Positions 1-15,297 of a stretch of DNA of 20,000 nt are shown in pieces (positions within the stretch are counted from its first letter, which is position 1; each line of letters starts with the position of its first letter). Both the position numbers and the translations under genes were made by a program. The notes below the pieces were generated by a model. It did not search any database and was not told where the DNA came from. It saw only the letters and a program-made list of their open reading frames with translations. The stretch is from an uncultured virus (IMG/VR IMGVR_UViG_2061766007_000665) (Duplodnaviria > Heunggongvirae > Uroviricota > Caudoviricetes), in the IMG/VR virus record IMGVR_UViG_2061766007_000665. One strand, written 5' to 3'.

Positions 1-77
1 TTCCAAAACGGACATGTGACGCATTCTAGCGTCAGAAACCCTTCTAAACAATTATTAGATAACTTAACTTCAGCCAT
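1..77 (-). CDS. Hypothetical protein, 5' part only (MAEVKLSNNCLEGFLTLECVTCPFW...), runs off the window
   Basis: ATG at 77 with AAAGGAG RBS upstream; frame open to the window edge; CxxC motif. Confidence 0.65.
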   Translation of the reverse strand, partial: MAEVKLSNNCLEGFLTLECVTCPFW

Positions 78-190
78 TTTCGTTTCTCCTTTCATTATCA
101 ATACAACGAAGTGCTTTGGCTTACAAAGACGGGCAGGCGGACGCCTAATGGTAAATATCGCGAAGCGATAAATATATCCCCCACAACATG

Positions 191-260
191 GCGCCTTAAG
201 CTGCCTTTACTAGCCAGCTACCAATAGCAAGCTAGTAAAGACAGCCCTATATAGGGCTGT
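191..260 (-). promoter_or_regulatory. Overlapping-hairpin intergenic element, copy 1 (diverged)
   Basis: Perfect 20-nt palindrome 241-260 overlaps a long hairpin 198-247 whose mismatches are mostly G-U pairs on the minus strand. Confidence 0.6.
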
Positions 261-264
261 ATTT

Positions 265-546
265 TTAAGAAATTGTCCACTGATAATCATAAATCCGCTT
301 ATAATAAGCGCCATTTACGATTTCAGACTTTCGAACAGCTTTATGAGCCGCTTTTTTGCAAAACACAGAGTAAGAAGAATTGTGCTTTCTTTTAACCCTA
401 TCGTCTTTAAGATACATACCAACATACCTTTTAGCATGCTGCAGATCTTTTGCCTCCTGCTTTTTCCTTGCATCGTGATTTCGCTGAAGCATGAGCGACT
501 CAGAACGAAGGAAGCGTTCCCACTCTTTAAAATTAGCAAATTCCAT
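265..546 (-). CDS. Hypothetical basic protein (93 aa)
   Basis: GGAGG 7 nt before ATG at 546; the out-of-frame ATG at 551 is only 2 nt from the RBS. Confidence 0.75.
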   Translation of the reverse strand: MEFANFKEWERFLRSESLMLQRNHDARKKQEAKDLQHAKRYVGMYLKDDRVKRKHNSSYSVFCKKAAHKAVRKSEIVNGAYYKRIYDYQWTIS

Positions 547-557
547 TTCATGCCCTC

Positions 558-782
558 CTATAAGAAACTAAGCTGTACATCTTCACCGGGTTCTGGTGTA
601 GACTTAAGATATTTTTTATCGAGCGAAAGTTTAGCTGTTGGCAGTAGGCCTAGCTTTTGCTTTGCTCGAAAAGCAAAATTAGCCAAGGCCTTGGCTTCTG
701 ATACAGCCAAGGTCTCGGCAACGTACATTGGAATAACGGTTATGTCAAACCGTTTTACCGGTCCTTCATATTTGTATTTCAT
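558..782 (-). CDS. Hypothetical protein (74 aa, MKYKYEGPVKRF...)
   Basis: AAGGAG RBS; start overlaps the upstream stop (TAATG), so start moved from 815 to 782. Confidence 0.75.
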   Translation of the reverse strand: MKYKYEGPVKRFDITVIPMYVAETLAVSEAKALANFAFRAKQKLGLLPTAKLSLDKKYLKSTPEPGEDVQLSFL

Positions 783-1852
783 TATTCTTCTCCTTTCTTG
801 CGCATTTCGATCCACTTATCGGGGTCTTTCTTAAAGTCAAGGAAGTTACCATAGGAGAATTTAGTGGATCCGGTGATGTAGACAAGCGTGGGCACATCGA
901 TATATTTATCTTCCACGAGATCATTGAATCTCATGAAGAGGTTAAAATCACCAAGCTTTTTGGTGACTTCATTTCCATCTTTATCGACGCTCTTGTAGGT
1001 TTCTCCCTTCACAGAAAGGATATACGTACGAACTTCTTCCACGCTCATGATGTGGGGCTCTCGACGAGTGCGATCGTCCCAATAAAGGTCATTGAAGTCT
1101 CCGTTCGGATCAACATTACGGAGAATGCCAACTACCTTTCTGGAAATAAGAAGATCAAGCTTATCTTCTTCTGTCATGTTTTCTGCAACCTTTTTCATTG
1201 CTTCTGCTTCGCGGGAACGATCGATCTGATCAACGGGTTCCTGCCCAAGGGCTTCAGCCCATGCTTGCTCTTTCGTCATGTCACGAAGAATGGAATATAG
1301 GAGCTTGTTATCTTCCCGCATTTGCTGTTGACGACGACGATACTCTTTCATTGTAGTGTTGAACCGATCAAATTCTACACTTTCTTCATATGTCATATTA
1401 TCAACTACAGCAGTTGCTTGAACACCGAAGATGTTCATGAAGGTCTTTTTCTTCGGCCAGAAATTGGAGAGGTACTCTTCATATTCAGCGCTAACGCCAT
1501 CATTATTAATGGCATTAACAAGATCATAAAGACTTTCTTGGTTTTCGGTTTCTTCACTGGATTTACCAAACCAGTATTTCTTGTTATTGCAGACGATGAA
1601 TTTAGATCCATACTGGTCTTCTCCTCCAGTGCATCCGGGGACTTTAGAAAGAAGATCGAACATACGATCTCTTCCTTCGTTGATGCATTCAACTCTTTTA
1701 GCAAAGAGTCCATGATTGATCTTCTTCAGGAACTTTTCATCAAAGTCCTTTCCTTTAAGCCATTCGATCTGGCCTTCGGTAAGAGGAAGATCTGCGAATC
1801 TCTTCGCATCTTCTTTGGCGGCAGCTTTCAGCATTTCATTAGTAGCTTTCAT
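782..1852 (-). CDS. Hypothetical protein (356 aa, MKATNEML...)
   Basis: Long ORF; GAAAGGAGAACTAAAATG RBS/start gives 1852 rather than 1882; no recognisable motif. Confidence 0.85.
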   Translation of the reverse strand: MKATNEMLKAAAKEDAKRFADLPLTEGQIEWLKGKDFDEKFLKKINHGLFAKRVECINEGRDRMFDLLSKVPGCTGGEDQYGSKFIVCNNKKYWFGKSSEETENQESLYDLVNAINNDGVSAEYEEYLSNFWPKKKTFMNIFGVQATAVVDNMTYEESVEFDRFNTTMKEYRRRQQQMREDNKLLYSILRDMTKEQAWAEALGQEPVDQIDRSREAEAMKKVAENMTEEDKLDLLISRKVVGILRNVDPNGDFNDLYWDDRTRREPHIMSVEEVRTYILSVKGETYKSVDKDGNEVTKKLGDFNLFMRFNDLVEDKYIDVPTLVYITGSTKFSYGNFLDFKKDPDKWIEMRKKGEE

Positions 1853-1965
1853 TTTAGTTCTCCTTTCATAAGAACAAAACAATAAATATTATGAAGAGAC
1901 GATATTGTCCTTCTTAATGTGCACCAATAATGATACACATTAAGAAAGGCATATAGCCTTTCTTA
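1853..1965 (-). repeat. Overlapping-hairpin intergenic element, copy 2
   Basis: Hairpins at 1941-1965, 1909-1948 (18 bp) and 1893-1913; aligns with 2191-2297. Confidence 0.75.
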
Positions 1966-2190
1966 CAGTTCCCTCCAACTGTAACGAAGAAGAGTTCTTC
2001 TAACCCTACCAGACCTCGCATGCTTAATGAGGAACTCATAAGATCTAATGCACTGATCTTCCAGTGCGTCGCGGAAGATTTCATAATCTTCCTGTACAGA
2101 CGTCCAAGAAAACTTGTAGCCTGCGAACAGCATGATTGCTGCGCATGCCTCATAGCGAGGCTCGCATACAGTAATGTTAATTCTAGCCAT
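1963..2190 (-). CDS. Hypothetical protein (75 aa)
   Basis: GAAAGGAGAACTAAAATG RBS/start, identical to that of the next gene. Confidence 0.75.
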   Translation of the reverse strand: MARINITVCEPRYEACAAIMLFAGYKFSWTSVQEDYEIFRDALEDQCIRSYEFLIKHARSGRVRRTLLRYSWREL

Positions 2191-2297
2191 TTTAGTTCTC
2201 CTTTCTTAGAACAGACTAAAATAAAAGTACATAATTGTACCTTCTTTAAATGCACCTATGTAGATGCACTTAAAGAAAGCCAATTAAGGCTTTCTAA
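2191..2297 (-). repeat. Overlapping-hairpin intergenic element, copy 3
   Basis: Hairpins at 2274-2295, 2239-2280 (19 bp) and 2224-2243, the last followed by a U-rich tract; compensatory changes relative to copy 2. Confidence 0.75.
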
Positions 2298-2612
2298 TTA
2301 CGGATGTAAATTTGGGCAGTAGATGTGCATATCGCCATCTTTTGCGTGCACCCCATCTGGGGCAACTGTCTGTTTCCCTACGATATCCATAAGTCTGTAA
2401 TTGTCATTAAACTTATAGAGCAGGTTTTCTGGCGTATTTGCCAGATATTCTTTGCGGTTAAGGTAGTTACCGCATGTGATAACAACGTTTCCGTTGTATC
2501 CACTCATGGCTATTCTTGCCACTGTGTTATACACACAGTCAATTGGCAAGCTGGGATTATAGACGGTGTTGATTAACACCATCAAATCATACAGGGAGTT
2601 TTTGTCAAACAT
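2298..2612 (-). CDS. Hypothetical protein (104 aa)
   Basis: AAGGAGGT RBS before ATG; tiles with its neighbours. Confidence 0.8.
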   Translation of the reverse strand: MFDKNSLYDLMVLINTVYNPSLPIDCVYNTVARIAMSGYNGNVVITCGNYLNRKEYLANTPENLLYKFNDNYRLMDIVGKQTVAPDGVHAKDGDMHIYCPNLHP

Positions 2613-2624
2613 TTTGTTACCTCC

Positions 2625-2783
2625 TTACAGATAGTTATAATAAGTGGTAAGAATTTTATCAGGATTATTAAATCCATAGACAATAAGAAAAATGAACAGA
2701 GCAATGACTATAAGAGACATTGCAAGTACGAACATAAACGCAAGAAATTGCGTTTTGTTCAGTTTATAGCGTTTTTTCATCAT
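2625..2783 (-). CDS. Small single-pass membrane protein (52 aa)
   Basis: AAAGGAG RBS before ATG at 2783; basic N-terminus followed by hydrophobic FLAFMFVLAMSLIVIALFIFLIVYGF. Confidence 0.7.
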   Translation of the reverse strand: MMKKRYKLNKTQFLAFMFVLAMSLIVIALFIFLIVYGFNNPDKILTTYYNYL

Positions 2784-2965
2784 TTTTCTCCTTTCTTTTG
2801 ATGAAAAACAGACTAAAAACAAGAGCTAATTTACATTTGGATACAAAAAACAAAAAGAATTCCAAATGTTACCCGGTCTTTTTCCATTACCAAAAATAAA
2901 AAATTAAAAAAATNNNNNNNNNNNNNNNNNNNNNNNNNNNNNNNACAATTGTATACACAATTGCA

Positions 2966-3186
2966 GTTAGTTCCTTTTTCGCACATTTTTTATCAAAAAA
3001 GGAACTAACCGATTCCACTTTTTCTTATGCTGGACTCACTTTTCAGTACCTCTTAAACCATTGATTTTATGCCATTTCTCGAACCCCTCAAAAATTTGGT
3101 GTTTTTCGCACCTCACGAGCCTTGAAATTTCAATGGGTTTCGTTAGTTCCTTTTTTGCGACTTTTTTGTTAAAAAAGGAACCCTAA
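2966..3186. repeat. Two direct copies of an inverted repeat (GTTAGTTCCTTTTT...AAAAAGGAAC)
   Basis: 2966-3009 has perfect 14-bp arms; 3142-3186 is a near copy. Confidence 0.8.
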
Positions 3187-3362
3187 TAATAATATAGTAC
3201 TTAATAGAAAAAAATATACAAACCATATCGGAGATACTTCCACTATTGCTTTACACACACCACATACTTATACACCTCCGGCGNNNNNNNNNNNNNNNNN
3301 NNNNNNNNNNNNNCATCATCACAATAGACTCTAAAAAAAATAAAAAAATTTTTTCAAAACAC

Positions 3363-3391
3363 TTGACAACTGCTTTTGATTATGTTAGAAT
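3363..3391 (+). promoter_or_regulatory. Sigma-A/sigma-70 promoter
   Basis: TTGACA (3363-3368), 17-nt spacer, TGn-TAGAAT (3386-3391), with an A/T-rich UP-like tract upstream. Confidence 0.85.
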
Positions 3392-3481
3392 TTAGGCAAG
3401 GTTGGTCGGTTGGCATATACCTATCTATCATCTTACATAAATTATAGCTTTACTTAAGGAGAACAAATAAGTATTACTATC

Positions 3482-4249
3482 ATGTCTAAAGAAGCAAAAC
3501 GTAACTCACTCTATTTTCAGATTCCAAATTCTATCATTCAATATGCATGCAGCCCATGTTATATTGAAAACCATAATTCTATGGTGCTACCTGTCTATCT
3601 ATATTCAGCAGTAAATTTTCAATATCATAATGACTGTAAGGNNNNNNNNNNNNNNNNNNTAGCCTCTACTTTTGATCATACTAATAACAAGCTTTGGAAA
3701 GATGTCCGCGATGCATTAAAGCTCCTTCATTCCGGATACAACACAACAATCTTTACTCCAGAATTGAAGATTAAATCTAAATCGATTGACATTCCTCAAT
3801 CTATTGAATATAAAATGCATATAGATAATGTTTCGAAGACTGATCGTATAGAATATTACTTTCTTAATAGATATGCGTCTTTTGCGTCTGGTGAAAGTAT
3901 GAATGGATATACTACATTCTATCATGACGAATATAATTATCTAATAGATTCTATTTCATACGCTAATGATAATTCTCCAAAAGATATAAACTTGGTCCAA
4001 CTTATTACCGTATATTCATATTTCAAAATGCAGATTCAGTATTTTAATAGCCTTTCTAAAAATTCTGCTTTTGATTATTCGTTTAGACAAACACTTGACA
4101 CAATATCTACTAATTTGTGTATGGCTAGACGTGTATTAATGAGATACATTAACTTTTTATATGATATTGGTATGATTGACTTTGATAAACAAGATTCAGG
4201 ATCAAGAAACTCTCGTGTATATACGCTTTCGATGCGTTGGAAAAAATAA
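3482..4249 (+). CDS. Winged helix-turn-helix DNA-binding protein (replication initiator-like or regulator)
   Basis: C-terminal QTLDTISTNLCMARRVLMRYINFLYDIGMIDF...RVYTL fits a wHTH pattern; the start may be an in-frame ATA at 3467. Confidence 0.6.
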   Translation: MSKEAKRNSLYFQIPNSIIQYACSPCYIENHNSMVLPVYLYSAVNFQYHNDCKXXXXXXXASTFDHTNNKLWKDVRDALKLLHSGYNTTIFTPELKIKSKSIDIPQSIEYKMHIDNVSKTDRIEYYFLNRYASFASGESMNGYTTFYHDEYNYLIDSISYANDNSPKDINLVQLITVYSYFKMQIQYFNSLSKNSAFDYSFRQTLDTISTNLCMARRVLMRYINFLYDIGMIDFDKQDSGSRNSRVYTLSMRWKK

Positions 4250-4282
4250 TTTTTGTTTTCCTGAAGTTTTTTTCAAAAACAC

Positions 4283-4311
4283 TTGACAACTGCTTTATTT
4301 TGTGGTATAGT
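4283..4311 (+). promoter_or_regulatory. Sigma-A/sigma-70 promoter, near-duplicate of the one at 3363
   Basis: TTGACA (4283-4288), 17-nt spacer, TGn-TATAGT (4306-4311). Confidence 0.85.
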
Positions 4312-4400
4312 ATACATGTAAACAAAAAAGACACAAGAGATTGTGTCAGATGTAGAATTTTAACCGAAAGGAGAAATATGAAGTAACATATATTATTGAA

Positions 4401-5057
4401 ATGTCTAGTAAGCCGAATACAAAACAAAAAATATTCTGGGACGTCGATGATGTTATATTAAATACATCAGAAGCTATTATTGATATTATTAATCAGAAAT
4501 ATCGCGTCCCAAATGGCCTTAAGCCAAAAACAGAAGATGATCAAAAGTCCTGGGGATATAAATCTATATATAGATCGTTTTCTGAAAGTCAGTTATTTGA
4601 AATTTTAGAATCCAACGAATTTTGGAAAAAGGTTAGGATTAATAAAGATTTTAAGCGCATTCTTGATACTGGAATGCTTGATAACTATAACAATGTTCTA
4701 GTTACAAAAGGGACTCTTACAAACCTTTCTCTTAAAATTGGATATCTTAAATCACATGGACTTAATTGTGATAGAGACTTCGTCTATGATCCTATCGTAA
4801 TCGAAGCTGGAGAAAGCGCTACTGATAAATCTGCAATTGATATGCGTGGAGCTATTCAGATAGACGACAATATTACTAATCTTATAAATACTAACGCGCA
4901 CATCAAAATTCTTATCAAAAATAATCATGATACCGTCTTTAATAATTCGTTTGGCCATTATACGGACAAAATTGACCCTGACGATATCTTTTACGAAGTA
5001 AACACAATCTCTGAAATTGAAGAGATTTTAAAATTTAATCTAGAATACAAGCTTTAA
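4401..5057 (+). CDS. HAD-superfamily phosphatase, 5'(3')-deoxyribonucleotidase-like
   Basis: Motif I IFWDVDDVI, motif II LVTKG, motif III Lys (DKS), motif IV IQIDDN. Confidence 0.8.
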   Translation: MSSKPNTKQKIFWDVDDVILNTSEAIIDIINQKYRVPNGLKPKTEDDQKSWGYKSIYRSFSESQLFEILESNEFWKKVRINKDFKRILDTGMLDNYNNVLVTKGTLTNLSLKIGYLKSHGLNCDRDFVYDPIVIEAGESATDKSAIDMRGAIQIDDNITNLINTNAHIKILIKNNHDTVFNNSFGHYTDKIDPDDIFYEVNTISEIEEILKFNLEYKL

Positions 5058-5073
5058 TTTAAAAAAGGACAAC

Positions 5074-7897
5074 ATGAAACCAAATCGTTTGTATTATGTT
5101 GTCAAGCTATCTTCATCTTTACTTAAAGAANNNNNNNNNNNNNNNNNNNNNNNNNNNNNNNNNNNNNNNNNNNNNNNNNNNNNNNNNNNNTAGAGATATT
5201 ACAGGGCAAAAAATTGATAGAGACATACTTGAAGAGTGGTATTCTGAACGTGATAGATTAAAAAAGAAAAAGAATAATACTAAAGAAACTCGAACAAAGA
5301 TAAAAGAACTCCAAGACAATATATACAACATGATGTATATAAAAGAATACATCACAGTTGTTATGGAAAATGAGAAAGATTATGAGCACATGTTCAAACA
5401 TGGCTTTGAATTTAATGGCCGTGTATATAGAAGAATGAGCTGCTCAGCTTCTCAGGCCAGAGTTTCAACTATAGTATTTGTAGATGAGTCTATTAAAGAT
5501 GAATTAAAAGATAGACTTGATAACGGAAGAGATTTAAATCATCTGTTAGCACCTAGTAAATATAATGCATACTTTGGTTTATATTCTTCTGCGATTAAGC
5601 AAGTTAGGAAACCAAGATTCTGCATTGTAAAAGACTATACCGAAACCAGACAAGTAGACGTTGATTATGTTATTGAGACAGATAAAGACTCTGATGATAT
5701 AATCGAACCTAGAACAGTTGATGTTGACTTTAATCTATTTGACGGATCCGGTATGATCAGTCCTGAATTTGCTGCTAAATGGGCAGAAGATTTAGGTGAA
5801 GATTATGTACCTTGTCAATTTTGTTTAAGAAGCTCTTTCACTAAAGGCATGGTTAATGTATTTGACTTTGTCGAATGGTGTAAAGAATATAATAACGGCA
5901 ATTATGAAATAGTTGATATATATGGGAAGAAGAAAGATTTAAGATTCTTTGATGTAATTCTTTCTGAAGGACAGGTGAAATTATGGGATTCATGGGAAAG
6001 CCAAAAGTCGTTTGAAGAGAATAGTGAGAAGAATGGCATTATCTGGGGCATTACAAAATACGCTCCAAAGAAAGATAAAGACGTTCTGCTTTCTAACTAT
6101 CAATATATTCAGACCCTTAAGCTTAATGATGAACAAATAGAATCTCTTTGCAAAGATACCGTTGATTACATTAAAGGAGTTTCATATTCCGATCCATATT
6201 ATTCATTACTGTTTATGCTTGGTGAAAACATGGATATACCAGATATTAAACAGTATATGGAATCAAGTGATAATTATTGGCTTAAAACGCTTATTTTAGA
6301 ACACAAGCTTCTTGACGATAAATACTCTAAAGAAAAAATTAGAGATATGATCGTGAGAAGAATTGAGCAAGCATGCCTTGGCAGAATTATTACAAGAGGC
6401 AATTATCAATGTATTGTTCCTGATAATTTCGCTTATATGGAAGCTATAACAGGCAAACCCATTGTTGGGTTATTAAAAGCTGGTGAGTTTTACAGCCAAT
6501 ATTGGAATAACATTGAAGAAAATGGACAGAGAACAACTAAAATTGACTGTATGAGAAGTCCGCTCACTCATTTTAGTGAGCATTACGCAGTTGATCTTAA
6601 GTTAAACGAAGATACTGAAAAATGGTATAAGTATAGCTATAGCGGTATAATCGTAAATGTCCATGACAATCATACAATGCACTTTGCTGGTTCAGATTAT
6701 GACTTTGATATTCTTGCTACTACCAATAATCAAGAGTATATCAATGGCATTTACCCAAACCAAAGAGTGGTAACATACGCCGTTAAAAAGCCAAAGAAGA
6801 AACTATTTAACGAGGATGATTTATATATTACTGATACATTTTCGTTTGGCACACAGATTGGGCAAATTACAAATGCAACTAGTACATTTGTTGCAATGAT
6901 GGCCGATTATCCGGAAGGCAGTAAAGAATATAAACTTCTTGGTGATAGAGTTAAAGCTGGATGCGCCGCTCAGAGCAGACAGATTGATAAAACCAAAATT
7001 GGCGAAAACGTTAAGACTTTAGGATCGTGTTGTAGACAATATATGAAGAGAAGCGAAGACGATACTGAAGAAGAACGTGAAAAAATAGAATTTTATAATA
7101 AACTTGTTGCTGATAGAAAGCCGTATTTCTTTAAATACAAGTATAAAGATCTTTATAAAGATATCAACATATACAACGAAAAAGTAGATAGAGACTTTAA
7201 AGAGAAATTTGGAAAATCACTTAATGAAGTAAAAGAGTTTGCACATCTTTATCCTGATAAGTTATCAGATAAGCAAAAACAAGCACTAGAGCTTTACAGA
7301 AAAAACTTCCCGGCACTTACTTCTCCATGTGTAATGAACAAGGTTTGTAAGTACATCGAAGGAATTGATTTCGAGATTAAGAAAAAGGTTAGATCTACAT
7401 CTGACTTTGACTATAAGGTTCTTCAGACCCAGGGATTTAACATTAATCAGAAGTTATATTATAAAATTAAGACTGAAGTTGAAACTACTTTTAAAGAGTG
7501 GGAAGAAAAAACAAAAGCTGCTAAAAAGAGCAAGATAGAAAAAAGCTTTACATATGATAAGCAGGAGATGAGATTTGAGCGTGAGGCTGAATGTAGAGCT
7601 TTAAAAGATAGACTTGAGGATATAGTATCTAATGAAGAAAGTCTTGCAAATCATCTTGTGTATCTATTTTATGTAGATAGACCGTCGTTTAGCAAATCTA
7701 CGCTTTGGAATTTAGTTGGAAGACAAATTTATCAAAATGTAAGATCAAACAAAGATTGTTTCTACTTCCCTGTTAAGAATAGTGATGGAACCATTACCTT
7801 CCTTTATGAAAAATATTCGATAGCTAAGATCGACTTAAGACAAAATTGTGAAGTTGACCTTAACGATAATAACTTTGATAATATAGAGTATGATTGA
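5074..7897 (+). CDS. yonO: YonO-like single-subunit two-barrel DNA-dependent RNA polymerase
   Basis: About 940 aa; motifs FDGSGMIS, LRSSFTKGM, MRSP and GSDYDFD of the YonO/cellular-RdRP-related family; lies upstream of HU and terminase as in SPbeta. True start is probably ATG 5074 (AAAGGA RBS, MKPNRLYYVVKLSSS), joined across the N-gap. Confidence 0.85.
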
Positions 7898-10936: not shown

Positions 10937-12860
10937 ATGGCTGTCACATGGAACAATAACGTTCAAAATATATCATTAGAAAGCCTGTCCGTTGGCAGCG
11001 CTGAAGAATTCCGTAATAAGCTTAATAAAAACTTTGGACATGATGTTATTAACCCTACTACTGGAATCGAATCTGCAATTAATGATAGTTTAAATCCATC
11101 AGTAAATGAGATTCATGATGTCGTGTCTGCTATTGAAGGACGAGTTACAAACTCTGAGGGCAATATTAGCAACTTAACTACCAATTTAGCTAATCTTACA
11201 AATGGTTACAATAATTTAAATACACTAGTAACAAGCACATCTAATCCAGTTGGTATTAATGCTCGTCTTACCGCAGCAGAAACAACGCTTGGTAATGCAA
11301 ATAGCGGCCNNNNNNNNNNNNNNNNNNNNNNNNNNNNNNNNNNNNNNNNNNNTTTTGGGCGCTGGTGGAGTTAATGCAAGATTAAACAATTTGTCAAATA
11401 GCCATAATACATTATATTCTGGATTTAACAATTTATATAATAATGTATACAATGCTGGTGGGCTTAATTCTAGAGTTTCTAGCCTTGAAGCGACTGTTGG
11501 AAACGCAAATGCCGGTTTAGTCAATACTGTTACAAAATTAAATACTACTGTAACAGGTCTTGTTACAAATGTAAACAGTTTAACTAATACTACAACCAAC
11601 ATTCTTCCAGTATTAAACGATCTAGGTAATGATGTCACTAATTTAAAGACAAATGTTGGCATTCCTACTGACGCAGCAAATTCTACAGGTACTGCATTTG
11701 CAAGAATAGCTCAGTTACGTGCCGATATTGGAGTATATACTGGTGTGCCAAATATTAATACACGCCTTAATGCTCTTGAGGCCAATAGTGGGTCGGCTAG
11801 CGTTCTTGCTCCTAGAGTTTTAGATTTAGAGAGTTTTGTTCAATATAATAATGATATATTAAATGATAATGGATCTGTCGCTGCTAGACTTGGGGCACTT
11901 GATGGGTATGGAATATCTGGATATGCTGATTTGAATAAATGGGTTGGCTACACCGCTACATTAAATACTCAACAGGGAACTGTTGCTAGTAGATTATCAA
12001 ATCTTAATAACACTGTTGTTGCAGCATACGCGCAAGCAAACTCAGCTTATGATAAAGCTAATAGTGCATATAGTACTGCAGTTGCAGCGTATTCTCAGGC
12101 AAACAGTGCATACAACCAAGCAAACAGTGCATATACACAAGCTAATACTGCAAGGAATCATGCTAATAATGCTTATAATACAGCAAATGCTTCTTATACC
12201 AAGGCTAACTCAGCATACACTATAGGTGACGGCGCCGCTACAACAGCTGCTGCCGCTTATGCAAAAGCAAATAATGCGTATAATCACGCCAATAACGCGT
12301 ATAATGCAGCTAATTCGGCATATTCAAAAGCCAACAGCGCTTATGATCTTGGGTCTACAACCATACAGCCAGTGTTGAATAACGCATATAATCACGCCAA
12401 TAGTGCTTACACTATAGCTACTAGCGCATATGCACATGCCAATAATGCATATAATACTGCGAATAGCGCTTACACAAAAGCCAATGGGGCATATAATCAT
12501 GCCAATAATGCTTACAATACAGCAAATAGTGCATATAGCACAGCTAACAGTGCATATACACAAGCAAATACAGCAAGCACAACTGCTTCTACTGTAAATA
12601 CATGGGTTGGATATAATTCTACTATTTATGGAAGCAACGCAAACAATACAGTTCATAATAGATTAAGCAGAGTTGAAACAGCGATAGTTAATGCAAAGCT
12701 GCCATATATTTATAATTCGTCATTAACAACGCCAGTTGGGACGCTTAATGCAAAAGATTATTATGGCACTTTTGTTATAGATTCTAACAGACGACTTTGG
12801 TTCTCATCCAATAATAATGCTAATGCTAATTGGCAGCTTGTCGCATCTGTTTGGGGTTAA
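10937..12860 (+). CDS. Segmented coiled-coil fibre protein (virion fibre/whisker-like)
   Basis: GGGAGG RBS; two ORF pieces joined across gap 11310-11352; Asn/Ala/Thr-rich heptads; small C-terminal domain. Confidence 0.7.
12018..12590 (+). repeat. Tandem 21-nt / 7-aa repeat array (AN[S/N]AYxx)
   Basis: ANSAYDK ANSAYST ... ANNAYNH ANSAYTI, about two dozen degenerate units. Confidence 0.9.
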
Positions 12861-12883: not shown

Positions 12884-13672
12884 ATGCTAACAGCGGCACA
12901 AATAGTGGCATTAAAAACCGCTATAAAAGAGCTCATGCAAAAAAGGTCTTCTACTATTGGCGGTACTGGTTTATCTGATTATGGCACTAGCACATATGAC
13001 TTTTCAACTACCCCTACAAAAGACGGCGTCATAAAAACAGAGCATGGAAATAAAACGTTTGATTTGCTATATCATATTAATAGTATAGCTTCTTATGGTC
13101 AGACTTCGCTTATTTCACAAAGCAACATAATAGAGGATGTAGATCCTTCAATAATTACCTATGTAAATACATTAAAAAGCTACAACAACTCTACGTCATC
13201 GTCTGCCGCCCATGGTTGCAGAAATGCATGCACTGGTTTATGTCAGGGAAGCTGTTATGGAGAGTCTAAAGCTGGTACTTCTTATGGTAGCTATTGTGAT
13301 GGATGCACAGGTGGATGCGGAGGAGGGTGCGAAGGCTGCGGTGGTGACTGTACAGTTGTTTGTTCCGATGGATGCTATACTGGCTGTAGTAACGGATGTT
13401 ATTCATCAAGTAATACGAATTGCGGATATTGTACTACATCTTGCGCCGATAATTGCGGAAGCGCTTGTGCCAGAGCATGTTCTGGTGGATGTACAAATGG
13501 ATGCTCTAACGGTTGCCAAGGATGTGATGGATGCGGAGGTAGTAATTGTACCGGATATTGCGCTTCTACATGTAGCAGTTGTTCTACTGCATGCAAAGAT
13601 TCGTGTGGTGCAAATTGTACTGGATGCTCTGTATTATGTACCGGGACTTCGATTTCTACGGCAGAGTGGTAA
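12884..13672 (+). CDS. Cys-rich CXXX-repeat protein, putative radical SAM modification target
   Basis: Cys-free N-terminal ~110 aa, then 34 Cys mostly in Cxxx/Cxx spacing in a Gly/Ser/Thr-rich context; GGAGG RBS. Confidence 0.85.
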   Translation: MLTAAQIVALKTAIKELMQKRSSTIGGTGLSDYGTSTYDFSTTPTKDGVIKTEHGNKTFDLLYHINSIASYGQTSLISQSNIIEDVDPSIITYVNTLKSYNNSTSSSAAHGCRNACTGLCQGSCYGESKAGTSYGSYCDGCTGGCGGGCEGCGGDCTVVCSDGCYTGCSNGCYSSSNTNCGYCTTSCADNCGSACARACSGGCTNGCSNGCQGCDGCGGSNCTGYCASTCSSCSTACKDSCGANCTGCSVLCTGTSISTAEW

Positions 13673-13696: not shown

Positions 13697-13990
13697 ATGA
13701 CAAAGACTTTAAAAATAGATAGTGAGATAGTTATTGATCTTCAACGGCTTGCCGTTGCTGTTGAATCTAGAAGAGATCTTATCGCCTTTATGATTTCTAC
13801 AGATATGGATTTAACGTCTCCTAAATTTAAAGAATATGAAGAAGCTTACGAAAGTTATTATTTTCAATATTCTACATTAAAAAAAGAATTAGAAAATAAT
13901 ATTATAGCGCCAGCTTTTGGTAAAGAAAATTTGATTAAGTGGAATTTAGACTTTAATACAGAAATAGTAACTGTTGAATTAAAAGAATGA
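13697..13990 (+). CDS. CXXX-repeat modification system small partner protein (putative)
   Basis: 97 aa, acidic and helical, ending WNLDFNTEIVTV; between target and rSAM; ATGA overlap with the rSAM start. Confidence 0.7.
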   Translation: MTKTLKIDSEIVIDLQRLAVAVESRRDLIAFMISTDMDLTSPKFKEYEEAYESYYFQYSTLKKELENNIIAPAFGKENLIKWNLDFNTEIVTVELKE

Positions 13991-15297
13991 TTACAGAAGA
14001 ATTAAGACACATCCCTCAATATCAGGATGTCATTTCTAAATTATATCAGGATATGTCTCCTAGTAATGAGCTGTTAACAAAAACAGTTACTTTTCAGGTA
14101 ACTGACGCGTGTAATCTTGCATGTACATATTGTTATCAGATTAGTAAACATAACAATGTAATGCCTTTTGAGGTTGCCAAAGAATTCATTGAAATGCTTC
14201 TTGAAAAAAATAATGACAATACAAAGCAGTATATAGATACTTGGAATAGCAAGGCAGTCATTATTGAATTTATTGGCGGAGAGCCTTTTCTTCAAATAGA
14301 TTTAATTGATCAAATATCAGACTATTTTGTAAAAAGAATGATTGAAACAGATCATCCATGGCAATATAATCATAAATTTTCTATTTGTTCTAATGGTGTT
14401 TTATATTTTGATCCGAAAGTACAGGCGTATATAAGAAAGCATAGACACAATTTATCGTTTTCAATTTCTATTGATGGTAATAAAAAGCTTCATGATTCTT
14501 GCAGAATTTTTCCTGATGGAAGCGGAAGCTATGATATAGCCATTGCTGGCGTAAAGCATTATATGAATGTTTTTGGAGGAAGAATGGGGTCTAAGATGAC
14601 CATTGCTCCCGGGAATGTTAATTATGTTGCTGAGGCCGTTGAGTCTTTAATAGAAACTGGATATGAGGATATTAACCTTAATTGTGTATATGAAGAAGGA
14701 TGGACAATTGAGCACGCAAAAATTTTTTATGATCAGCTAAAAAGACTGGCAGATTATATTGTTGATAATGACTTATTTGAAAAAGTGTTTATATCTATAT
14801 TTTCAAATACGTTTTTTAAGCCTAAAGATATAAGTGATGAAGATACTTGGTGTGGCGGAAACGGAAAGATGATTTCAGTAGACTATAAGGGAGATATCTA
14901 TCCTTGTATTCGTTATATGGAATCTTCTTTAGGAAACGACCAACCGCCACTAATTGTAGGTAATGTATACGATGGTATTCTTTCTAAACCTAATTGGTGC
15001 GAATGTTTTAATTGTTTAAAATGCACCACAAGAATATCTGAATCACCACAAGAGTGCTTAAACTGTCCTATTGCTGATGGGTGCTCTGATTGTCTTGCAT
15101 ATAATTATCAGCTTTATGGCTTGCCTATNNNNNNNNNNNNNNNNNNNNNNNNNNNTATGCATAAAGCTCGCTCTCTTGCTAACGCTTATTTTTGGAACAA
15201 AGGATATAAAAAGAAGGGCTCCAATGAAAGATTTAAAATTTGGTTACCAGATGAAGANNNNNNNNNNNNNNNNNNNNNNNNNNNNACCGAGCTGTAG
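13987..15297 (+). CDS. Radical SAM/SPASM peptide maturase, CXXX-repeat target family
   Basis: CNLACTYC (CxxxCxxC), FIGGEP, SISIDG, SPASM cysteines CGG...GDIYPC...CLNCPIADGCSDC; exact stop uncertain because of a gap. Confidence 0.9.
   Translation: MITEELRHIPQYQDVISKLYQDMSPSNELLTKTVTFQVTDACNLACTYCYQISKHNNVMPFEVAKEFIEMLLEKNNDNTKQYIDTWNSKAVIIEFIGGEPFLQIDLIDQISDYFVKRMIETDHPWQYNHKFSICSNGVLYFDPKVQAYIRKHRHNLSFSISIDGNKKLHDSCRIFPDGSGSYDIAIAGVKHYMNVFGGRMGSKMTIAPGNVNYVAEAVESLIETGYEDINLNCVYEEGWTIEHAKIFYDQLKRLADYIVDNDLFEKVFISIFSNTFFKPKDISDEDTWCGGNGKMISVDYKGDIYPCIRYMESSLGNDQPPLIVGNVYDGILSKPNWCECFNCLKCTTRISESPQECLNCPIADGCSDCLAYNYQLYGLPXXXXXXXXXXMHKARSLANAYFWNKGYKKKGSNERFKIWLPDEXXXXXXXXXXTEL

Follow-up and report, generated by a model that had tools for sequence, protein, structure and literature searches.

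In the Bacillus phage SP82 the sites cut by ribonuclease III (RNase III) lie between early genes and resemble one another, and in phage T7 and at sib of phage lambda, hairpins cut by RNase III leave protective hairpins behind; at sib, short and long versions of one hairpin set the sensitivity to the enzyme. The SP82 RNAs are characterised targets of the B. subtilis RNase III, and the portions of the literature consulted here state that mutating the ribosome-binding (polypurine) site shortened the half-life of an SP82 mRNA (PMC4838370, PMC1935012, PMC7509114). Rules for the RNase III stems of T7 are given in the part of PMC1935012 that was used. Here we analysed a stretch of 20,000 nucleotides (nt) from an uncultured virus (IMG/VR record IMGVR_UViG_2061766007_000665), called the window in its full length, in which two homologous spacers, A and B, lie between leftward genes. 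Judged from the comparison of the two, the case that they carry a structured sense-strand RNA element, present in two copies, appears well supported. What the element does is less certain, and our tentative preference, held at somewhat less than an even chance, is an intercistronic module for mRNA processing and stability of the RNase III type.

Spacer A follows gene g104 and precedes g75, and spacer B follows g75 and precedes g356. The two spacers were homologous, as an original prediction made from the letters of the window had claimed, with a mean column identity of 79% over 129 columns and of 84% across a 73-column core that holds the first three hairpins, and the flanking open reading frames (ORFs) were unrelated. 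Their parts are listed below with window coordinates; H stands for hairpin, SD for Shine-Dalgarno sequence and MFE for minimum free energy.

2191..2297, minus strand: spacer A, 107 nt, after g104
2274..2295, minus strand: A-H1, AGAAAGCC / GGCUUUCU, 8 base pairs (bp), loop UUAAUU, -11.3 kcal/mol
2244..2275, minus strand: A-H2, 14 bp (in the MFE fold 12 bp, 2246-2273), loop ACAU, two G-U pairs, -15.4 kcal/mol
2223..2244, minus strand: A-H3, GAAGGUACA / UGUACUUUU, 9 bp with 2 G-C pairs, -6.9 kcal/mol, followed by AUUUUAG
2189..2222, minus strand: A-H4, AUUUUAGU...UUCU paired with AGGA...ACUAAAAU, which takes in the core of the SD and the AU of the g75 AUG
1853..1962, minus strand: spacer B, 110 nt, after g75
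1943..1963, minus strand: B-H1, AGAAAGGC / GCCUUUCU, 8 bp, loop UAUAU, -11.0 kcal/mol
1913..1944, minus strand: B-H2, 14 bp (in the MFE fold 12 bp, 1915-1942), loop UUAU, two U-G pairs, -16.8 kcal/mol
1893..1913, minus strand: B-H3, GAAGGAC / GUC-U-CUUC, 7 bp and a bulge, -5.6 kcal/mol, with no U-run directly behind it
1851..1880, minus strand: B-H4, GUUUUGUUCUU paired to GAGAAC-UAAAAU; the SD is covered in its 3' part and the g356 AUG in its AU

The sense (minus-strand) RNA of both spacers folded into H1, H2 and H3 in tandem with linkers of 0-1 nt, and into H4 over the SD and the AUG, in which a U-rich tract pairs with the SD, the AUG and the letters between them. H2 abutted H1 without a linker and measured 14 bp when it took 2 bp from H1 and 12 bp otherwise, and H3 began 1 nt past H2. 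The start of H1 lay 2 nt past the stop codon in A, and in B its first base was the last A of the stop codon. The sense fold reached -39.8 kcal/mol in A and -39.3 kcal/mol in B (z -7.0 and -7.2), and none of 200 shuffles folded equally well. The antisense RNA folded at -26.2 (A) and -27.5 (B) kcal/mol, which is 12-13 kcal/mol worse than the sense RNA. When the spacers alone were compared with the other co-directional spacers of the window, of three relatives by their RNA polymerase (RNAP) and of phage BUCT082, 20 in all, A (-37.2 kcal/mol, z -6.1) and B (-37.6 kcal/mol, z -6.3) were the most structured apart from one classical terminator. An identical end shared by both spacers had been pointed out in the original prediction, and the 18-mer GAAAGGAGAACTAAAATG does occur exactly at 1850-1867 and 2188-2205; yet it is a generic ribosome-binding site (RBS) and start codon, found also in at least 114 unrelated IMG/VR stretches. 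The three hairpins that had been described as overlapping pairings of strands 1:2, 2:3 and 3:4 were recovered in both copies as a topology, but the hairpins of the MFE fold stand in tandem, and the U-rich sequence reported after 3:4 is present in A only, since B continues with the tail AUAAUAUUUAUUG.

The differences between the two copies argue that the pairing has been preserved. H1 showed one double change (C-G to G-C), H2 three double changes (U-A/A-U, A-U/U-A and U-A/A-U) and two one-sided ones (G-U/G-C and C-G/U-G), and H3 two one-sided changes (G-U/G-C). These four double and four one-sided changes left no pair broken, in agreement with the compensatory differences first reported for the locus, and 48 of the 48 cells were paired, compared with 35-57% when the partners were slid against each other. 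In H1 and H2 together, ten stem bases differed and zero pairs were broken; when ten substitutions were placed at random by simulation among the 44 bases of the H1 and H2 stems, all 22 pairs were kept in a fraction of 7.5e-6 of the trials at equal rates and of 2.9e-4 with transitions weighted fourfold. Every non-Watson-Crick pair read G-U on the sense strand, as had also been claimed. With parameters for single-stranded DNA (ssDNA) the two strands were near equal (-14.9 vs -12.3 and -15.5 vs -15.1), and this asymmetry as RNA but not as ssDNA indicates RNA-type G-U pairing, so the signal points to RNA. Natural variants at 85-99% identity were found in four sequencing runs (X3, X5, X6 and X8, including variants at 85-95%), and counts of variant positions refer to the positions listed. 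In a 92%-identical variant on a 1463-nt contig from run X8, all three single-base deletions inside spacer B fell on unpaired positions, which make up 34% of the spacer (P=0.038).

The same RNA has a second, near-isoenergetic way to fold. Strand 1 and strand 3 carry almost one and the same purine tract (AGAAAG / AGAAGG), matched by pyrimidine tracts in strands 2 and 4, so the RNA is able to re-pair into a long irregular duplex of 18-30 bp. Both purine tracts are shortened versions of the GAAAGGAG Shine-Dalgarno sequence that the operon itself uses. The 2:3 helix is an outward extension of H2 for which H1 gives up its 3' arm and H3 its 5' arm:

2232..2286, minus strand: long helix of A (2:3 extended), 19 bp, an A bulge and 6 bp, excluding H1 and H3
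1906..1951, minus strand: long helix of B (2:3), 18 bp, a 1x1 mismatch and 2 bp

It thus proved incompatible with full H1 and H3, as originally proposed. A terminating ribosome's footprint would include strand 1, which lies 0-2 nt beyond the upstream stop codon. When strand 1 was masked, the 2:3 helix became the minimum-energy fold (-35.8 kcal/mol in A and -31.3 kcal/mol in B) and 3:4 was abolished. In the unmasked RNA a giant hairpin made of 1:4, loop-to-loop pairs and 2:3 reached -38.0 kcal/mol against the MFE of -39.8 in A and -37.1 against -39.3 in B, that is, 1.8 and 2.2 kcal/mol above the optimum. The loops of H1 and H3 have a tetranucleotide in common, AAUU in A and AUAU in B. This would agree with the long form, although it was seen by eye in an ambiguous loop alignment. 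The six pairs that extend H2 into 2:3 were invariant between the copies, so covariation is silent for or against 2:3. The sense-strand covariance model also matched both loci on the plus strand (45.7 and 38.2 bits), so the core of 73 nt is a palindrome that is itself built from palindromes.

The reading that we tentatively favour would connect these features as follows. Spacers A and B would be copies of one RNA module, lying in a polycistronic operon whose leftward orphan genes are presumably transcribed as a single mRNA. Each module would fold from the upstream stop codon, with H1-H3 abutting and H4 occluding the next RBS, and a double-strand-specific RNase III of the host would cut either the long duplex or the coaxial hairpin stack. 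The cut would leave the upstream cistron capped at its 3' end by H1 and the downstream cistron capped at its 5' end by H3/H4 together with the purine tract. In this way stability and translation would be controlled separately for each orphan gene, and as a by-product the homologous spacers might allow unrelated genes to be swapped in and out. A duplex of the size used by RNase III was available in both copies, either as 18-25 bp with strand 1 masked or as the giant hairpin near the MFE. The position of the spacers between cistrons of a predicted transcript fits the ORF layout and the finding of no convincing promoter or terminator in them. We also count for a processing module that the alternatives that depend on a terminator, a promoter or an attC site each failed a direct test, as described below. 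There is a weak hint that long intercistronic duplexes recur among these phages: the related phage contig L116 gave two weak model matches, at 1043-1118 (21 bits, E 0.038) and at 2053-2116 (12.6 bits, E 1.6), which fold as sense-strand intergenic stems of 22-23 bp.

Several points weigh against RNase III processing. The stems that RNase III recognises are irregular and about two helical turns long, and such a duplex exists only in the alternative fold; the favoured fold has an H2 of 12-14 bp stacked between H1 and H3, which is short for the enzyme. The long form is not the MFE and its six extension pairs reach an ensemble probability of about 4-15% and are invariant, so nothing shows that the long form has been selected. 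Only two copies of the element were found, and in a two-sequence shuffle control the observed values were reached by 54 of 500 shuffles, with n=2 precluding significance. Among the 20 co-directional spacers, from five loci, the z-score was more negative on the sense strand in 11, which gives no general bias towards sense structure, and given this result the analogy with L116 may be a coincidence. The sequencing runs listed with the stretch include no RNA run. Finally, a stability role without cleavage, or a switch sensed by ribosomes, would leave the same signature in the sequence.

The original prediction had gone further and cast the spacers as a relay of ribosome-coupled transcription attenuators, in which the ribosome that terminates at the stop codon melts H1, strand 2 pairs with 3 and H3 is blocked so that transcription reads through, and in which H3 terminates when the upstream gene is not translated. 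Both copies have the mutually exclusive 1:2 / 2:3 / 3:4 topology, H1 begins 0-2 nt past the stop codon (a matter of geometry only), and the 2:3 fold with strand 1 masked lies below the MFE minus H1 (about -28.5 kcal/mol in A and about -28.3 kcal/mol in B) by about 7 kcal/mol in A and 3 kcal/mol in B. The refolding part of the proposal was therefore upheld, but H3 makes a poor terminator: it is weak, with two G-C pairs in A and AUAAUAUUUAUUG rather than a U-run after B, and a terminator scan called no minus-strand terminator in either spacer while calling nine elsewhere in 1-5200 against 2.7 expected. The genuine terminator of phage BUCT082 is unlike H3, with a GC-rich stem of about 14 bp in a fold of -41 kcal/mol. 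The invariance of the 2:3 extension pairs makes them uninformative here as well. Bacillus-type hosts largely uncouple transcription from translation, which also counts against an attenuator, and a polymerase of the YonO type, such as the phage's own, lacks domains that respond to hairpins, according to PMC5467207. A leader peptide was considered and dropped, as the 8-codon mini-ORF that follows an SD-like tract in A is missing from B. We regard the attenuator relay as improbable, and the processing stems and cassette boundaries that the original prediction had named as alternatives suit the data at least equally well. A bistable RNA switch responding to the termination of translation, in which the finishing ribosome would melt H1 and turn three hairpins into one duplex, thereby gating an RNase III cut, read-through or the loading of ribosomes, appears to us no less improbable. 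The coat-replicase coupling of RNA phages follows an analogous logic. Control or coupling of translation itself, with the hairpins bringing the stop codon near the next start, H4 occluding the RBS and initiation depending on ribosome-triggered refolding or on a repressor bound to the conserved RBS region, is unlikely in our view, though it accounts for several features. H4 lies over the SD and AUG in both copies with different 5' arms and an identical 3' arm, three purine tracts (strand 1, strand 3 and the SD) and three pyrimidine tracts permit shifts of register, strand 4 of B pairs with the SD region when strand 1 is masked, and the 18-nt block of RBS and start is identical between the copies compared with 79% for the whole alignment. 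However, H4 is modest relative to an SD of 8-9 nt (the last 40 nt folded alone gave -7.6 kcal/mol in A and -6.2 kcal/mol in B), A-H4 is unchanged in both conformers and has no evident path of activation, the shifted register in B still hides the SD, the distance from stop to start is 107-110 nt, and the identical 18-mer is the generic string of at least 114 unrelated phage contigs.

Two further explanations were weighed. At the level of DNA, the spacers could be cassette boundaries used in homologous or site-specific recombination, similar to attC sites or to the PeSLs of T4-like phages, or a palindromic site bound by a protein, and the RNA fold would be incidental. Homologous spacers do flank unrelated orphan genes, the three RNAP relatives (61-68% identity) do not share the leftward cluster, which is what a plastic region would show, the core of 73 nt is the quasi-palindrome seen in the plus-strand matches of the model, and as ssDNA the folds of the two strands are about equal. 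What makes this explanation quite unlikely is that G-U is tolerated on the sense strand only, where all one-sided changes are exchanges of G-C and G-U, that H1 has a compensatory pair of its own, which a simple long palindrome would not need, and that recombination requires identity rather than compensatory change. An integron attC site was rejected as a candidate: of the 38 matches in the window to GTTRRRY, which we take to be the attC core motif (R'/R'' core sites), none was in the spacers, and none of the 19 window ORFs scanned against Pfam and PHROG matched an integrase or recombinase family. The least probable of the readings is a plain insulator between transcription units, in which H1 or H3 is a weak terminator that forms a composite with a promoter in the spacer. 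The hairpin AGAAAGCC-loop-GGCUUUCUUU looks like a small terminator hairpin of the A-tract/U-tract kind, unrelated phage contigs contain similar hairpins of H1 alone, and spacer B contains TTAAGA-18-CATAAT, a 9/12 match to a promoter. Yet H1 has only three G-C pairs with its U-tract inside the stem, no terminator was called in the spacers, and the conserved 12-14 bp of H2 is left unexplained. The match in B has no counterpart in A and lies within noise (26 sites against 19.4 +/- 4.0 expected from shuffles), and the clear promoters of the phage are near-consensus with 11/12 each, so a sigma-A promoter in the spacers was rejected. The promoter used by YonO is left undefined in the part of PMC5467207 consulted.

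Further copies of the element were not found where they were sought. The original prediction had suggested a covariance-model scan of the whole genome and relatives and a comparison with Rfam, and neither extended the family. With the covariance model R1 only the two known copies were significant (93.5 and 90.4 bits; window and L115-L117), and the full records behind L115-L118 held no significant copy. A permissive Rfam scan of the whole window matched nothing in the spacers, and its single match elsewhere was SpR14 at 2952-3028 (E 0.77), whose 30.6 bits fall short of the gathering score of 50. Core patterns, including one of 22 bases, had 0 matches in IMG/VR, JGI metagenome contigs and GTDB genomes; a looser H1-H2 pattern found six loci in IMG/VR with only an H1-like hairpin, the best at 20.7 bits. 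The left-hand clusters of the three RNAP relatives showed no similarity to the spacers (longest words 11-12 nt, E >= 0.28). A dispersed palindromic repeat or MITE-like element (Correia, ERIC, BOX) was likewise set aside, with only two copies in 20 kb and none further in the relatives or collections searched.

Two other places on the minus strand of the window are partly comparable to the spacers:

78..264, minus strand: spacer C, after g93, with tandem hairpins from 4 nt past the stop codon; a possible structural analogue of A and B
2775..2807, minus strand: g52 leader, which shares with A and B only the RBS-adjacent module UUUUAGUCUGUU...GAAAGGAGAA (repeat family D8)

The fold of 150-270 in spacer C reached -50.8 kcal/mol (z -4.9) and the model matched 190-262 at 13.2 bits (E 1.3), and spacer C showed no clear sequence homology to A or B. 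The g52 leader had no H1-H3, and 2780-2912 folded no better than shuffles (z -0.02). Apart from these, L116 carries on its minus strand, at 1040-1120 and 2055-2115, a repeated long hairpin framed by UUAAGCAUUG...AGUGCUUAA whose inner stem is wholly different between the copies. A module upstream of the RBS, also on the minus strand of L116 (3530-3590 and 1990-2060), reads GCCUU/AAGGC in one copy and GGGUU/AACCC in the other, and GUAGC/GCUAC against GCUAC/GUAGC; by eye, these changes look compensatory in a pseudoknot-like layout. In run X5, a contig of high depth appears to share only about 2215-2249 (35 nt, A-H3 with the tail behind it), while the sequence on either side is unlike and continues richer in U. 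The match may reflect low complexity and chance, or else an H3-like terminator that stands alone elsewhere, which would count for the attenuator relay.

The minus-strand cluster consists of six small ORFs with strong Shine-Dalgarno sites and is divergent from the plus-strand genes:

2625-2783, minus strand: g52, first gene of the leftward operon, 52 amino acids (aa), one long hydrophobic segment
2298..2612, minus strand: g104, 104 aa, orphan, upstream of spacer A, stop codon UAA at 2300-2298
1963..2190, minus strand: g75, 75 aa, orphan (no Pfam or PHROG match), between spacer A upstream and spacer B downstream
782..1852, minus strand: g356, 356 aa, downstream of spacer B
558-782, minus strand: g74, the only one of the six with a family match, phrog_15567 of unknown function
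265-546, minus strand: g93, upstream of spacer C

A strong AAGGAGG site lies 5' of the ATG of g104, which had no match in Pfam or PHROG and, among 5.8 billion proteins, no relative beyond one 64-aa fragment identical to it. In the frame of g356, third codon positions held 21 of the 29 natural variant positions listed, so g356 is a real coding gene; its only family match was a sub-threshold one to Pfam Peptidase_M15_2 (16.3 bits against a cutoff of 27). No relatives of g356 and g104 were found in IMG/VR, nor of g356 in the JGI metagenomes; blastn of 1-3480 against 50,697 phage records gave no match, and the left-hand clusters of the three RNAP relatives held no homologues of the six ORFs. The g52 product is a candidate small membrane peptide, perhaps of the type I toxin or holin-like kind. 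Runs of N, about 18-60 bases long, interrupt the window (for example 2914-2944, 3287-3313, 3642-3659 and 5131-5190); those in the control region upstream of the leftward operon make its promoter unreadable. In the same divergent control region two 40-nt repeats, 2966-3005 and 3142-3181, are 85% identical and 176 nt apart, each with the inverted repeat GTTCCTTTTTT...AAAAAAGGAAC, and the sub-threshold Rfam match to the small RNA SpR14 overlaps the first; from its sequence, the pair could act as two operators or belong to a gene for a small RNA.

On the plus strand an ORF of 933 aa (5096-7897) matched the Pfam family RdRP PF05183 (E 1.5e-13). A tblastn search with it matched 41 phage records, the top one being that of Bacillus phage BUCT082, a Spbetavirus, with 41.3% identity across 90% of the query, and gave about 23% identity to the yonO genes of SPbeta-like phages. 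This ORF for a YonO-like single-subunit RNA polymerase has a strong host-type promoter directly 5' of it, and its N-terminus is partly masked by N. Tail-fibre-like, radical-SAM and terminase genes lie 3' of it on the plus strand, and the stretch was present in metagenome runs from animal gut, in full in runs X1 and X2. The window is phage DNA by these matches, most probably of an uncultured gut phage that is SPbeta-like and carries the gene for a YonO-type RNA polymerase. Near-consensus plus-strand promoters of the sigma-A type were found at 3363-3391 and 4283-4311 (TTGACA-17-TAGAAT and TTGACA-17-TATAGT, each 11/12). Both stand in a 46-nt promoter module with a TG extension (3349-3394 and 4269-4314, plus strand), whose copies are 78% identical and lie ahead of g255 and of the g218/RNAP genes. 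Three other plus-strand features were noted. A 262-aa protein (12884-13672) has a C-terminal half made of a Cys/Gly-rich repeat with many CxxxC-type spacings, and a radical-SAM enzyme (13987-15297; phrog_1802, E 4.4e-61, and Pfam Radical_SAM) is encoded about 300 nt downstream of it, past an ORF of 97 aa. At 12045-12603, a tail-fibre-like protein of 536 aa has a 21-nt (7-residue) periodic repeat with 11 in-register copies and a Pfam match to Alanine-zipper.

If the spacers are processing and stability sites, they would be a portable punctuation mark of Firmicutes-type phage operons that combines 3' and 5' caps, the stem to be cleaved and a masked RBS within about 110 nt, and such a module would help to explain how shuffled arrays of unrelated orphan genes are expressed uniformly. 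If the two-state fold is instead used as a switch triggered by ribosomes, each cassette would be licensed by the translation of the preceding one, a gene-to-gene relay through a portable duplicated spacer; that would be an unusual regulatory logic for a double-stranded DNA phage and a useful part for synthetic biology. As it stands the significance is modest, as this is a structured element, well supported but with two copies, in an uncultured phage.

Among described systems, SP82 is the closest precedent, as a Firmicutes phage with mRNA targeted by RNase III and a polypurine 5' stabiliser. The SP82 sites, in the part of PMC1935012 that describes them, are single stems with internal loops that are cut once, on the downstream side, whereas here three abutting hairpins compete with a long duplex. 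Lambda sib and the RNase III sites in the early region of T7 are similar in being intercistronic or 3' hairpins of about 20 bp in polycistronic phage mRNAs, but they belong to Gram-negative hosts and have no sequence or Rfam relationship to the spacers; moreover, the choice between short and long forms is set at sib by where transcription ends and would be set here by competing local hairpins. With attenuators of the trp/his type the spacers share four strands, the exclusive pairings 1:2, 2:3 and 3:4 and a ribosome placed on strand 1. They differ in having the stop codon of a full-length upstream gene instead of a leader peptide, a 3:4 hairpin that is not terminator-like and a hairpin of 12-14 bp nested in 2:3, and in being repeated between genes rather than placed at the leader of an operon. 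Integron attC sites are imperfect palindromes directly past the stop codon of each cassette, with structure kept better than sequence, and they separate small promoterless genes in one orientation. The spacers are likewise imperfect palindromes right after stop codons, but their context is a phage and their G-U pattern points to RNA. The PeSLs of T4-like phages are described, in the parts of the reports consulted, as small conserved motifs of promoter and stem-loop that stand beside unrelated orphan genes in plastic regions and serve their modular shuffling (PMC4122927, PMC2839356). A conserved motif (79-84% identity) flanking unrelated variable genes is also present here, but without a conserved early promoter in the spacers, in another host group, and with three or four hairpins and compensatory changes on the sense strand. 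A role in the shuffling of orphan genes, by analogy with what the excerpt of PMC4122927 says of PeSLs, would be compatible with a processing module as a by-product. The element is thus undescribed as a sequence family and belongs, as a kind, with the known intercistronic hairpin elements of phage operons, among which its unusual features are the two-state architecture, with three abutting hairpins and one long duplex about 2 kcal/mol apart in both copies, and its placement on the stop codon.

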